DNA of 21,049 nt from Patescibacteria group bacterium (GTDB taxonomy: Bacteria > Patescibacteriota > Gracilibacteria > BD1-5 > UBA2023), in the NCBI GenBank assembly GCA_030836665.1, contig JAUPLX010000004.1:1-21049 (forward strand). Direction: 5' to 3'. Position 1 is the first letter of the stretch. Every line of letters begins with the position of its first letter. Under the pieces are notes generated by a model. That model ran no database searches. It was not told the origin of the DNA and saw nothing but the letters and a program-made list of their open reading frames with translations. This document shows, in pieces, positions 887-20,789 of the stretch. The position numbers were made by a program, and so were the translations under genes.

Positions 887-1726
887 ATGAAATCCGAACT
901 CATATCTTCCCTTCTCGTCAACTTCGAATCCATCCGTCAAGAATCCGGCGGCGTCGAATTCTGGAGCGCGAGAGATCTTCAAAAACTGCTTTGATATGCC
1001 GAATGGCGGAATTTTGAAAAGTCAGTTCAAAAGGCGGTTGAATCCTGCAAGAATGCCTCCGTTGAGGCAAAAGACCATTTTGTTGAGTCCAACAAAATGG
1101 TCGACCTCGGAAGCGGTGCGGGACGTACCGTCGACGACGTTCTCCTTACGCGATATGCCGCCTATCTCGTGGCTCAGAACGGAGATTCCTCAAAACCTGA
1201 AATCGCTTTCGCCCAAGCATATTTCGCCATTCAAACCCGAAAGCAAGAACTTATCGAACAACGTCTTCTCGATTCCGAGCGAATAAAAGCTCGGGAGAAA
1301 CTCTCCGAAAGCGAAAAGGTCCTTTCGAGCGTAATATACGAGCGCGGCGTGGATGAAAAAGATTTTGCAATCATCCGTTCCCAAGGCGATAAGGCCCTTT
1401 TCGGAGGAAGGACTACTTTGGAAATGAAATCGAAATTGAAAATACCCGTCAGTCGACCTCTTGCGGATTTTCTCCCCACGCTCACAATCAAAGCCAAAGA
1501 CTTCGCCAACGAAATCACGAGTCACAACGTAGTGGAAAAGAATCTGAACGGAACGAATCCCATAACGAAGGAACACGTCGATAACAATCTCGCGGTTCGC
1601 AAAATGCTCCGGGAACGATGAGTAAGCCCAGAGAACTTACCACCGGCGGAAGACACGAAGAAAGTCCAGAAACGAATCGAGGGCGACACGAAAAACCTTT
1701 CCGAATCGACAAAGAAGAAAGAATAG
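887..1726 (+). CDS. dinD: DNA-damage-inducible protein D (DinD-like), 279 aa with two in-frame UGA(Gly) codons
   Basis: The track ORF 1097-1621 is the middle of the gene. ATG at 887 gives MKSELISS...GGVEFWSARDLQKLL-[TGA 992-994]-YAEWRNFEK. TGA at 1619-1621 reads through into ...RER-[G]-VSPENLPPAEDTKKVQKR..., a DinD-like C-terminus ending at TAG 1724-1726. Confidence 0.85.
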
Positions 1727-1809
1727 GGATTTTCCAATAGTCGATGAACGCGACCTTCGCGCCGTATACGATTATCGAACGGGCCGAAAAAAGGAGTTCG
1801 TACGAAATG

Positions 1810-1841
1810 AAATCCCCCGGCCTTGCGGTCGGGGGATTTTT
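1810..1841. terminator. bidirectional intrinsic terminator hairpin between convergent dinD and the membrane-protein gene
   Basis: AAATCCCCCG (1810-1819), 10-nt loop, CGGGGGATTT (1830-1839). A-run on one side and T-run on the other. Confidence 0.7.
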
Positions 1842-1891
1842 CGGTCGGGCCGTCCGGCATTCCGAAGAAGCCGGGGACTCCGGGGTAGCGA

Positions 1892-2497
1892 CTATGAGAC
1901 GCGGGCGTATTCGCCTTCGATTACGCCCGTCGTGTTGCGGAAGTCGCCTTTTTCGACGGGCCCTTCGCGCACTTCGAACTTGGCGAGGAACTTCTTCGCG
2001 TTTTCTGCGACGGCGAAGAAGCCGAACTTGAGCACGAGAACGCTCAATACGAAGAAGAACGCCGTAACGGTGGAGCCGGTAAGGGCCAAGGATGCCGCAA
2101 GGCCGATGTGGGCGATCCAGCCGACCGCTTTCCTGGCCGACGGTTTCCCTTTGGCCATCCGCAACGTACCGCGATTCAAGAAGAAGCCGTCCGCCTTGTC
2201 GCCGGTCTTATCCGCCAAGACGGAGGCGGTGACGACCATGAAGAAGCCGCTGATGCCGTAGAGCAGGATTCCCAGCCACGTCACGACGACGGCGACGTTG
2301 ACCAAGGGGGCCGTTTCCGGTACGAAGAGCGTGGCTACGAGGATGCCGATGAGCGCGAAGATGGTGAAGAGAACGACGTAACCCTTGATGGATTTTTCGT
2401 CTTCCGCTTCCCAGACGCGCTTGGCGGCCTCTTTGGTATGGGGCGGCAAACCGAGGTCGTCGAGTTGCTTTTGGTCTTTGTTCGAAAGCGTGGGCAT
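1892..2497 (-). CDS. hypothetical integral membrane protein (about 4 TM helices)
   Basis: 201-aa ORF with four long hydrophobic segments. AGGAGG lies 8 nt upstream of the ATG. TAG stop. I recognise no family. Confidence 0.6.
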   Translation of the reverse strand: MPTLSNKDQKQLDDLGLPPHTKEAAKRVWEAEDEKSIKGYVVLFTIFALIGILVATLFVPETAPLVNVAVVVTWLGILLYGISGFFMVVTASVLADKTGDKADGFFLNRGTLRMAKGKPSARKAVGWIAHIGLAASLALTGSTVTAFFFVLSVLVLKFGFFAVAENAKKFLAKFEVREGPVEKGDFRNTTGVIEGEYARVS

Positions 2498-2581
2498 GGT
2501 TTGTTCCCTCCTCTGAAATTGGAATTGCCGAAATTGCCTACCGGATAAAAATACTCCGTTTCCCCGGAAGTCAATTCGTAT

Positions 2582-2612
2582 TTGACATCATGATTATTTA
2601 TGTTTTTAGAAT
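2582..2612 (+). promoter_or_regulatory. candidate promoter for the RhuM-Fic/Doc gene (TTGACA ... TAGAAT)
   Basis: Perfect -35 TTGACA at 2582-2587 and TAGAAT at 2607-2612. The 19-nt spacer is longer than optimal. Confidence 0.3.
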
Positions 2613-2654
2613 GCGCTTCCAATGGGACGGACGAGGGTGAATTCAAAAACAATG

Positions 2655-18371: not shown

Positions 18372-18407
18372 ACGTTTGCTGTATAAGGAAAGAGGTTTTT
18401 GATTCGA

Positions 18408-19250
18408 TTAGCCCATGAGCTTTCCGCGCTTGGTGCGGACGATCCATTTGTCGGTCGACTTGCGGTTGCGGGTGATGACGCCACGGGTGATTTTTCCCCA
18501 AGGAGTTTTCGGACCCTTGCGCTGTCCGAGGGACTGGTGTCCTTCACCACCACCGTGCGGGTGGTCTACGGTGTTCATCGAGGAACCGAGGACCGTCGGG
18601 CGGCGGTTCATCCAACGGGAACGTCCGGCCTTACCGATGACGATCTGGTTGTGGAAGGTATTCGAGACGGTACCGACGGTTGCCCAGCACTTCTTGTGGA
18701 TGCGGCGGATTTCTCCGGAAGGGAGCTTCACCTGGGTGTATTCGCCTTCTTGGGACATGACGACGGCGGCCGATCCGGCAGAGCGGACGGTGGAGGCTCC
18801 GAGTCCGACGATGAGTTCGACGTTGTGGATGGAGAGACCTACCGGGATGTTGCCGATGAGGAGGCGGTTTCCCGGGACCGGCTTGGCCGATTCGGAAGTG
18901 ATGATGGTATCGCCTACCTTCATGTCCTTGTGAGCGAGAACGTAGCGGCGTTCGCCGTCACGGTAGCAGACGAGGGCGATGTACCCGGTGCGATTCGGAT
19001 CGTATTCGATCGTTTCGACCTTTGCCGGGATTTCTTTCTTATCGAAGGAGAAATCGACCATGCGGTAGAGTCTCTTGTGTCCGCCGCCCTGGTGGCGGAC
19101 GGTGATGCGGCCCGTATTGTTGCGGCCTGCGGCGTTCTTCTTATAGAACGTGAGGGGCTTGTACGGCTCGGTCGCGGTGATTTCGTCGAACGAGTACCCC
19201 GTCATCTCGCGACGGCTTGGGGTTGTCGGGTTATACTTCTTGATCGACAT
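18408..19250 (-). CDS. rplB: 50S ribosomal protein L2
   Basis: 280 aa. ...VDHPHGGGEG... Confidence 0.97.
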   Translation of the reverse strand: MSIKKYNPTTPSRREMTGYSFDEITATEPYKPLTFYKKNAAGRNNTGRITVRHQGGGHKRLYRMVDFSFDKKEIPAKVETIEYDPNRTGYIALVCYRDGERRYVLAHKDMKVGDTIITSESAKPVPGNRLLIGNIPVGLSIHNVELIVGLGASTVRSAGSAAVVMSQEGEYTQVKLPSGEIRRIHKKCWATVGTVSNTFHNQIVIGKAGRSRWMNRRPTVLGSSMNTVDHPHGGGEGHQSLGQRKGPKTPWGKITRGVITRNRKSTDKWIVRTKRGKLMG

Positions 19251-19274
19251 ACGCTTGAGTTTTAGGAGGAGAGA

Positions 19275-19580
19275 CTATTTCTTTTCGGAGAGAATCTTCT
19301 GGAAGTCGGCGAGACGGGTTCCGTCGGCGAGTTTTACCATCGCCTTCTTTTCGATACCGCGTTTCGCGACGATGCCGGCCTTTCCGGCGTTCTTGAATTT
19401 TTCGCGGGTCTTGAGGATGTTGACCGATTCGACCTTGACTCCGTAGAGGCGTTCGAAGGCGGAGCGGACGTCGACCTTGGTTGCCTTCGGATCGACGATG
19501 ACGGTGTAGACTCCGGCGAATTCGAGCACTTGGCTCTTTTCGGAGACGACCGGTTTCTTAATGATCGAGTAGAGCGACAT
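19275..19580 (-). CDS. rplW: 50S ribosomal protein L23
   Basis: 101 aa, in the conserved position with L23-like sequence. Confidence 0.93.
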   Translation of the reverse strand: MSLYSIIKKPVVSEKSQVLEFAGVYTVIVDPKATKVDVRSAFERLYGVKVESVNILKTREKFKNAGKAGIVAKRGIEKKAMVKLADGTRLADFQKILSEKK

Positions 19581-19594
19581 TGTATCGTTACCGG

Positions 19595-20215
19595 TTACGA
19601 GTAGAAGGCGGTTACCTTCTCGAGCGAAGCCTTCGTGAAGACGAGGGTGTCGAACTTGAGGAGGTCTTTCGGGTTGAGGTAGCTCGCGCCGATGAACTTG
19701 GCGTTCGGGATGTTGCGACCACCCTGGAAAGCGTTGCGGTCTTCCGGGAGGACGGCGAACACGGCGGATTTGACTCCCATGTTCGTCACGATGTCCTGCA
19801 TGGTCTTGGTCTTGGCTGCTTCTTCCGAGAAGGATTCGATGACGGCTACTTTTTTCGCTCCTGCCTTGGAAGAGAGGAGGGAAACGAGAGCGAGGCGGCG
19901 TTCCTTCTTATTCATCATGAGCGTCCAGTTGCGGTTGTTGCGGGGTCCGAATGCGACGCCGCCGCCGATACGGGTCGGAGAGCGGGAGTCGCCGGCGCGG
20001 GCCTGGCCCGTACCTTTCTGCTTGTAGAGCTTACGGGTGGAACCGTTGCGGTCGCTGCGGGTCTTGGTGTGGGCTCCGGATACGCGGGCATTTGCCTGCT
20101 GGAGGACGAGGAGACGGTGGATGAGGCCCTGGAGGACTTCTTTCCCGAAGACCTCTTTGGAGAGCTTGACCTTACCGGACTCGAGCCCTTGCTGATTGTA
20201 GAGAATCGCTTCCAT
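19595..20215 (-). CDS. rplD: 50S ribosomal protein L4
   Basis: 206 aa. ...KQKGTGQARAG..RSP...GGGVAFGP... Confidence 0.95.
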   Translation of the reverse strand: MEAILYNQQGLESGKVKLSKEVFGKEVLQGLIHRLLVLQQANARVSGAHTKTRSDRNGSTRKLYKQKGTGQARAGDSRSPTRIGGGVAFGPRNNRNWTLMMNKKERRLALVSLLSSKAGAKKVAVIESFSEEAAKTKTMQDIVTNMGVKSAVFAVLPEDRNAFQGGRNIPNAKFIGASYLNPKDLLKFDTLVFTKASLEKVTAFYS

Positions 20216-20234
20216 AGTTGGATAATCGCGGGAT

Positions 20235-20789
20235 TTAGAAATCTAAGACGAGAAGGGAGTTGCGAGCGCCCGGAACCGGTCCCTTGAGGGCGATGACCGA
20301 GAGGTTCTTGTTGACGAGCTCGAGCGGAACCTTCTTGATGGTGATGCGTTCGGTACCCATGTGTCCGTGCATTTTCTGTCCCGGTTTGGTGCGGCGCGGT
20401 TTGCGGCAACCGATGGAACCGAGGGCGCGGTGGAACTTGGATCCGTGTCCCGCAGGACCTCCGGAGAAGTTGTGGCGCTTCATGGCACCCGCGAAACCCT
20501 TACCCTTGGAAATTCCATGGAGGGTGACGGTGGCGACGCCTTCGAGAACGTCGAGGGTGACGGCGTCTCCGGCTTTCATGCCGGTGAACGCTCCCGTGAA
20601 CGGGACTTCGCGACGGACGACTCTTTTGCCGTCTACCGCTTCAAGTACGACAGCTTCGTAACCGTCCTTTTCGACGGTCTTGATCTGTGCGATCTTCAGC
20701 TCGGGGACCCGGAGGAGAGTAACGGGGACGAATGCGTCTCCCTTTACCACGCGGGTCATGTCGAGCTTCTTAACGATAAGTCAAGCCAT
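20235..20789 (-). CDS. rplC: 50S ribosomal protein L3 (184 aa) with UGA(Gly) at codon 3
   Basis: ATG 20787-20789 gives MA-[TGA 20781-20783]-LIVKKLDMTRVVKG, continuing into track ORF 20235-20759. Homologues begin MxGLxGxKxGMT. Confidence 0.92.

Follow-up and report, generated by a model that had tools for sequence, protein, structure and literature searches.

The 21,049-bp stretch of contig JAUPLX010000004.1 analyzed here, called the window throughout, almost certainly comes from a GC-rich (guanine- and cytosine-rich) member of the bacterial lineage BD1-5 that uses translation table 25, in which UGA encodes glycine (Gly) and UAA and UAG are the sole terminators, and the recoding appears to be clade-wide and inherited. 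The comparisons below support table 25 and show that the sense TGA codons are equivalent to Gly codons, that the contig lies inside BD1-5, and that TGA use falls with GC content. A sequence-only reading of the window had already assigned UGA to Gly under table 25; the assignment is now supported by Gly-bearing alignment columns, the lack of TGA stops, the placement in BD1-5, and the recurrence of the TGAs in other assemblies and in relatives.

Translation of the window with TAA and TAG as sole stops and comparison of the products with Pfam and NCBIfam defined 32 protein genes, which together take up 87% of its length. The GC content over the whole 21,049 bp is 56.2%, in agreement with the mid-50s that had been judged by eye. 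The 32 genes end in TAA (22) or TAG (10) and never in TGA, as had been claimed from the letters. TGA accounts for 10 of their 6069 codons (0.16%) against 521 GGN codons, which is 1.9% of their Gly codons. In the GC-rich standard-code outgroups L037 and L043 (63% GC), TGA ends 6-7 of 19 same-operon genes, and at a rate of about 0.3 the probability of finding no TGA end among 32 genes is, by our own calculation, about 1e-5. The ten in-frame TGAs that the sequence-only reading had picked out were all confirmed at the coordinates given there. The operon, the genes concerned and their sense TGAs (u in the motifs) are as follows.

10685-20789, minus strand: secY and 19 ribosomal-protein genes, rplO to rplC (from translations, Pfam/NCBIfam matches for S19, L6 and L3, and synteny with relatives)
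20235-20789, minus strand: rplC (L3), 184 codons; NCBIfam L3_bact, 159 bits
20781-20783, minus strand: sense TGA, rplC codon 3 (MA-u-LIVKK)
18108-18371, minus strand: rpsS (S19), 87 codons; Pfam Ribosomal_S19, 124 bits, full length; NCBIfam rpsS_bact, 130 bits
18348-18350, minus strand: sense TGA, rpsS codon 8 (SLKK-u-PY)
13617-14171, minus strand: rplF (L6), 184 codons; NCBIfam L6_bact, 215 bits, residues 2-180
14157-14159, minus strand: sense TGA, rplF codon 5 (MSRI-u-KLP)
887-1726, plus strand: dinD (DNA damage-inducible protein D), 279 codons, TGA at codons 36 and 245
992-994, plus strand: sense TGA, dinD codon 36
1619-1621, plus strand: sense TGA, dinD codon 245
3887-4948, minus strand: hemW-like radical SAM gene, 353 codons, TGA at codons 281 and 341
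4106-4108, minus strand: sense TGA, hemW codon 281
3926-3928, minus strand: sense TGA, hemW codon 341
7765-8712, plus strand: secreted/surface protein with C-terminal CTHRC1_C, 315 codons, TGA at codons 99, 109 and 147; Pfam PF25815, 64 bits
8059-8061, plus strand: sense TGA, surface protein codon 99
8089-8091, plus strand: sense TGA, surface protein codon 109
8203-8205, plus strand: sense TGA, surface protein codon 147

Residues aligned to the sense TGA codons

The 20 proteins of the operon were run by tblastn against 43 loci of GTDB species representatives, which were fetched via L2; the recoded relatives are labeled L001-L031 and the outgroups L032-L043, among them L042 (Stammera) as a code-4 control. 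In rpsS, codon 8 is TGA in 26 of the 31 relatives (GC 26-60%), and of the 13 outgroup loci, 8 have Gly in this column (among the 12 standard-code loci, 7) and 5 have Pro. In rplF, codon 5 is TGA in every mid-GC and high-GC relative sampled and GGN in L022 and the low-GC clade, and its column is mostly G in the outgroups. The third codon of rplC is TGA in the GC-rich clade, in L010 and L013 and in most low-GC relatives, and GGN in the other relatives; the outgroups have G, F or S in this column. When the codons of the 20 window genes were tabulated against the residues of 11 standard-code outgroup loci, TGA aligned to G in 64% of cells, and GGA, GGC, GGG and GGT aligned to G in 62-78% of cells. 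The well-sampled codons all had their standard meaning. TGG aligned to W; R was the residue in 94% of the cells for CGA (n = 3) and, as the top residue, in 41% of those for CGG (n = 13). CGC is the main Arg codon of the window.

The product of dinD matches the NCBIfam DinD equivalog with 341 bits over residues 1-276, a match that needs read-through of both TGAs. Codon 245 falls in a column with G in 117 of 120 full-length homologues; at codon 36, 43 members of the same set have G and 52 have N, and G is present in all four of the closest homologues displayed in the alignment (P0001, P0002, P0003, and P0005). The hemW product matches Pfam Radical_SAM and scores 180 bits against NCBIfam HemW, under the 205-bit cut-off. 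Its codon 341 aligns to G in 78 of 97 homologues and to W in 11. At codon 281, most of the closest full-length relatives (P0123-P0132) have G, P0127 having A, and the position is variable in distant homologues. It had been proposed that read-through restores a HemN_C-like tail to HemW; the tail is below recognition by Pfam HemN_C, yet it aligns with HemN_C-bearing homologues. Some HemW homologues in the databases stop exactly at the TGA positions of the window (280 and 342 amino acids). The surface-protein homologues P0307, P0294, and P0311 cover the N-terminal half and align in one frame across all three TGAs, which bears out the earlier suggestion that these TGAs join two open reading frames (ORFs). 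The three nearest homologues all have G at codon 99, K, D and K at codon 109, and A, S and A at codon 147. Codon 109 is sense, as the frame continues, but its variable column is not informative on the amino acid; the small residues at codon 147 are compatible with Gly and are not diagnostic.

The sequence-only reading had held that the homologous residue is Gly wherever the family is known. This stands for six of the ten columns, which are diagnostic for Gly in the alignments (rpsS 8, rplF 5, rplC 3, dinD 245, hemW 341, and surface protein 99). No TGA column points to Trp, Cys or a stop.

Placement in BD1-5 and alternative readings of UGA

The genomes nearest to the window (93-95% L2 identity) are metagenome-assembled genomes (MAGs) with loci of 55-60% GC, labeled Candidatus Peribacteria, Candidatus Gracilibacteria or Patescibacteria group bacterium. 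The label Candidatus Peribacteria was set aside as uninformative, since it is also carried by the low-GC heavy TGA users L027 and L031 and by the outgroup L041. A neighbor-joining tree was built from 2918 concatenated columns of 20 proteins. In this tree the window groups with L001-L005, and the group is nested among relatives of 37-49% GC, including L029; L022 (55% GC) is basal to the window group and these relatives, and the sister group is a clade of 26-33% GC. The window's clade is sister to the clade of L026. The genomes of L029 (CG12_big_fil_rev_8_21_14_0_65_38_15, genus UBA1545) and L026 (UBA7396) are both listed under o__BD1-5 with a Codetta assignment of UGA=Gly (Shulgina and Eddy, 2021, PMC8629427).

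In-frame TGA is carried by all 31 ingroup loci (GC 26-60%) and is mostly aligned to Gly in 30 of them. In L001-L021 and L023-L031 it occurs within the ribosomal-protein operon, and the 11 standard-code outgroups have no in-frame TGA in that operon. Among about 540 ends of ribosomal-protein genes in L001-L031, one apparent case of termination at TGA was seen (L030). The remaining locus, L022 (DAOMYL010000001.1), has neither a TGA in about 3100 aligned ribosomal-protein codons nor TGA stops; its one in-frame TGA falls where a thymidylate-kinase-like gene (L022 7328-8146, IAIE-u-VDGSGK) has the Gly of its P-loop. That L022 might be a revertant to the standard code was considered and rejected on account of the absence of TGA stops and of the TGA at the kinase P-loop Gly; its use of code 25 is sparser still than that of the window.

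UGA use falls as GC content rises. TGA supplies 38-42% of the Gly codons of the ribosomal-protein operon in L023 and L030, 1.6-5.2% in five mid-GC loci, and 1.0% in the window; overall, its share is about 1-2% in the 55-60% GC sub-lineage against about 40% at 26-33% GC. Because the recoding is common to the whole sampled clade, the GC-rich sub-lineage would have inherited it from the clade rather than acquiring it. New TGAs also arise in the BD1-5 lineage, an example being dinD codon 245 at a near-invariant Gly column. The closest full-length DinD homologues belong to Bacteroidota and other phyla (63-67% identity), which suggests that dinD was acquired by transfer. In terms of mechanism, UGA would be decoded by a tRNA-Gly with anticodon UCA, for which the identity elements G1:C72, C2:G71, G3:C70 and U73 are expected, and release factor 2 (RF2) would have been lost, as published work on the lineage implies.

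Some observations weigh against the assignment of table 25. The columns of dinD 36, hemW 281, and surface protein 109 and 147 are not conserved Gly and show sense decoding only. Scans of the window and of roughly 0.8 Mb of relatives' loci turned up no tRNA with a UCA anticodon; the only tRNA of the window is tRNA-Thr(GGU), and the tRNAs in the scanned loci of the 31 relatives and of six more, reached via HemW/DinD homologues, are Thr, Met, Leu, and other ordinary ones. The tree is a simple distance tree in which GC-driven amino-acid bias could distort the branching order. On this tree the reassignment may or may not have arisen in an AT-rich ancestor.

Among the alternatives, an incomplete or ambiguous reassignment survives best, although it is very unlikely. 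Inefficient reading of UGA as Gly, perhaps in competition with a retained RF2, would explain why TGA makes up only 0.16% of codons and why it lies near the start in highly expressed genes, where premature termination is cheap; in the GC-rich clade, 17 of the 18 TGAs that ribosomal-protein genes contain are within the first 25 codons. However, TGAs also occur late in less expressed genes (codon 245 of 279 in dinD, codons 281 and 341 of 353 in hemW), where leaky termination would be costly, TGA stops are absent, and given the gradient described above the rarity of TGA is explained by GC content alone.

The reading of UGA as tryptophan (table 4), known from Mycoplasmatales and several insect endosymbionts, is exceedingly improbable. 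Its support is the W found at the two TGA columns of some HemW homologues in the databases (5 and 11 sequences), but these sequences occur only among closer relatives, which include recoded Gracilibacteria, and their W residues are, we infer, table-4 mistranslations. At the codon-341 column, G stands in P0142, an NCBI record of Gracilibacteria, and standard-code HemW homologues have G. No W was found in the TGA columns of the ribosomal proteins or DinD, and in the codon tabulation the window's TGG corresponds to W and its TGA to G, whereas the TGAs of the code-4 control L042 align to W and Y by the same method. Alignment of the TGA columns to Trp was one of the outcomes that, by the sequence-only reading, would refute it; they do not align to Trp.

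It is equally hard to credit that the TGAs are real stops in pseudogenes, or sequencing or assembly errors. Standard-code gene callers do split or truncate the affected genes, but the same TGAs are present in separate assemblies of three runs and, in related species with L2 identities as low as about 62%, at the same codons. In Logan assemblies, whose matches to the window are 99.8-100% identical, the TGA of rpsS was reproduced for SRR24011158, SRR24011159, and SRR24011130 (L055, L056, and L058), and those of rplC (contig L044) and dinD (both, in L046) in run SRR24011159. The Logan contigs with identical proteins are all at most 6.4 kb long and served as confirmation, not as an extension of the contig. 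Moreover, the essential S19, L6 and L3 are among the affected proteins, homology continues in frame on both sides of every TGA, and TGA terminates no gene of the window.

Site-specific recoding in a standard code, by selenocysteine insertion or programmed read-through, has next to no chance of being correct: an in-frame TGA is the signature of a selenoprotein and nothing else specific speaks for it, but the ten sites lie in six unrelated genes with Gly alignments and never Cys (absent from all ten columns in the ribosomal, DinD, HemW and surface-protein alignments), ribosomal proteins are not known to be selenoproteins, no gene of the window uses TGA as its stop, and the Rfam matches above the gathering threshold are RNase P RNA and one tRNA, with no family of selenocysteine insertion sequence (SECIS) elements.

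Sense TGA near the starts of ribosomal-protein genes

TGA codons of the ribosomal-protein genes were counted as early (within the first 25 codons) or late (beyond them), with odds ratios taken against GGN. They are almost confined to the early part in the GC-rich clade and mid-GC clade A; the bias is weaker in mid-GC clade B, and the low-GC heavy users do not show it. These counts are phylogenetically non-independent, and in the GC-rich clade six genomes contribute the same small number of sites.

GC-rich clade (window, L001-L005): 17 early, 1 late, odds ratio 127
Mid-GC clade A (L006-L013, L015): 35 early, 11 late, odds ratio 25
Mid-GC clade B (L014, L016-L021, L029): 16 early, 44 late, odds ratio 2.5
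Low-GC heavy users: 90 early, 558 late, odds ratio 1.3

In the ribosomal-protein genes of the window, TGA is three of the eight Gly codons in the first ten codons and is not used further in. The rpsS gene illustrates its retention: in the GC-rich clade all of the synonymous sites around it have moved to GC-rich codons (ACA has become ACC, CGT CGC, AGT TCC, CTT CTC, and AAA AAG), but codon 8 is still TGA. In genes that are probably less expressed, TGA is found anywhere along the length. The regions around the starts are poor in G, which amounts to 9% in the leaders of the ribosomal-protein genes, 20% in codons 2-8 and 25% in the gene body. When TGA was swapped for GGN, the predicted stability of the region from -30 to +45 was higher in 11 of 12 substitutions. 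A Shine-Dalgarno-like match was found in the 30 nt before the start codons of 4 of the 32 window genes, which suggests initiation independent of Shine-Dalgarno pairing. The leaders of the ribosomal-protein genes are pyrimidine-rich, several of them with CCTCC-like or TTTCC-like runs.

TGA is the sole Gly codon without a GG dinucleotide, and therefore it may be favored in the initiation region, which it may keep unstructured or slowly decoded. Goodman and colleagues reportedly described in 2013 an N-terminal codon bias and weaker mRNA structure near start codons in bacterial genes. The pattern in the window resembles this bias in that a GG-free Gly codon is confined to the starts of ribosomal-protein genes, with leaders and first codons depleted in G, and differs from it in that the favored codon is a reassigned stop. 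On the simplest reading, 5' ends that are weakly structured or decoded slowly are preferred, as is already known, and here this preference extends to a reassigned stop. Either selection or shared ancestry may lie behind the retention of UGA at 5' ends. It is conceivable, if rather doubtful, that in mid-GC and high-GC BD1-5 selection maintains UGA-Gly in the 5' ends of genes with high expression and that the codon is not merely a relic; if so, a stop codon, once reassigned, would have taken on a function tied to its position. We know of no prior description of a 5'-end preference for the reassigned stop in code-25 lineages.

Gene calls, gene content and known systems

The practical weight of the finding exceeds its biological weight, as public standard-code calls lose or truncate S19, L3, L6, L24 and HemW. 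In the Logan standard-code calls, S19 is uncalled and a spurious antisense ORF of 98 amino acids stands in its place, and L3 is shortened to 174 amino acids. L6 is shortened to 170-175 amino acids in public calls of relatives, L24 is missing from the gene calls of the NCBI genome GCA_049315825.1, and HemW is truncated or carries Trp in public data. The warning of the sequence-only reading that any standard-code annotation of the contig would be wrong was thus borne out by the lost S19 and the truncated L3, L6 and HemW. Miscalled genes were seen in L044, L047, L048, L049, and L055-L058 and in proteins P0121-P0140. When coding density was compared between tables 11 and 25 (greedy longest ORF), the ten TGAs shifted it by less than 2%, and long spurious antisense ORFs dominate the longest-ORF sets in GC-rich DNA; density-based code detection may have little signal at about 0.16% UGA.

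The order of the operon genes is rplC, rplD, rplW, rplB, rpsS, rplV, rpsC, rplP, rpmC, rpsQ, rplN, rplX, rplE, rpsN, rpsH, rplF, rplR, rpsE, rplO, and secY, and all 20 terminate in TAA or TAG. The gene rpmD (L30) is missing at the S5-L15 junction, where rpsE ends at 12584 and rplO starts at 12556 with a gap of 27 nt, and relatives have the same arrangement of rpsE and rplO without rpmD. Absence of L30 is a general trait of Candidate Phyla Radiation (CPR) bacteria, and the CPR-like character that had been read from this absence is upheld. The other features of the window are as follows.

69-797, minus strand: YgjP-like metallopeptidase
1892-2497, minus strand: membrane protein
about 2754-3752, plus strand: RhuM/Fic protein
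3803-3878, minus strand: tRNA-Thr(GGU)
4948-5697 and 5745-6494, minus strand: two tandem endonuclease/exonuclease/phosphatase paralogues
6501-7133, minus strand: adk
7285-7653, minus strand: RNase P RNA, bacterial class A, full-length (Rfam RF00010, 172 bits)
8667-9125 and 9211-9609, plus strand: two small membrane proteins
9667-10269, minus strand: DnaQ-like exonuclease

The neighbors of dinD are the YgjP-like metallopeptidase and the RhuM/Fic protein (69-3752), and the closest DinD of a recoded relative (JAVHPY010000073.1; L050 3803-14032) is inside a type I restriction-modification operon in the order hsdM, hsdS, dinD, hsdR. Possibly the window's left end belongs to a defense island. The tRNA-Thr(GGU) gene is directly downstream of hemW and is kept in relatives (L047 11077-11152, L049 11063-11137, and L053 11074-11149), and the stop codon of the first endonuclease/exonuclease/phosphatase paralogue shares one base with the hemW start. 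The endonuclease/exonuclease/phosphatase gene is present in a single copy in the syntenic relatives L047, L048, and L053 versus two copies in the window. The adk gene stands apart from secY instead of directly following it, and RNase P RNA sits between adk and the surface-protein gene. The latter is not at this position in L047, L048, and L053; in the CTHRC1_C half its product shares 63-70% identity with proteins from large sulfur bacteria (Candidatus Parabeggiatoa, Achromatium, and Thioploca), a likeness that may reflect gene transfer or hint at host association.

Code 25 has been known in BD1-5 and Absconditabacteria since 2013 (Rinke et al., 2013), and the recoding was reported in a BD1-5 bin of 33% GC (Hanke et al., 2014, PMC4032931). 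The lineage is named Candidatus Gracilibacteria by NCBI and falls in class JAEDAM01 of Patescibacteria (CPR) in GTDB; this class, with the orders Absconditabacterales and BD1-5, is given as the table-25 taxon in a 2026 preprint. Code-25 lineages were described with GC contents of 0.21-0.53, and UBA2023 (BD1-5, 0.53 GC) was assigned UGA=Gly (Shulgina and Eddy, 2021, PMC8629427). Candidatus Hodgkinia, with up to 0.58 GC, was cited in the same work as a case of GC-rich UGA reassignment (PMC8629427). Code 25 is therefore not new here, the GC range is extended only slightly, and close GC-rich relatives are already public. High GC is not unprecedented for a recoded UGA, because Hodgkinia reaches 0.58 GC; the window is GC-rich, as the sequence-only reading had stressed, but the weight it gave to recoding at such a composition was overstated in view of this case and the published BD1-5 genome of 0.53 GC. 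The upper GC bound of code 25 moves to about 56-60%, and the clade documents a reassigned codon under opposing base composition, falling from about 40% of Gly codons to 1-2% without a return to stop.

Compared with known systems, the window is like BD1-5 / Candidatus Gracilibacteria in the reading of UGA as Gly, the lack of TGA terminators, and the CGA and CGG codons for Arg of mid-GC and high-GC genomes, and unlike the published BD1-5 in its GC content (56%, with nearest relatives at 55-60%, slightly above 0.21-0.53) and its sparse UGA (about 2% of Gly codons). UBA2023 (GCA_002335145.1), known from the published table, is likewise a GC-rich BD1-5 genome with UGA=Gly and CGC-dominated Arg, and it may belong either to the window's sub-clade or to the L022 branch. 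Absconditabacteria (SR1) also read UGA as Gly, but their GC content is about 0.31-0.33 and their CGA and CGG are predicted to encode Trp, whereas those of the window align to Arg. Candidatus Hodgkinia cicadicola shares with the window the reassignment of UGA in a GC-rich genome, but it is an alphaproteobacterial endosymbiont with an extremely reduced genome, in which UGA encodes Trp (table 4).

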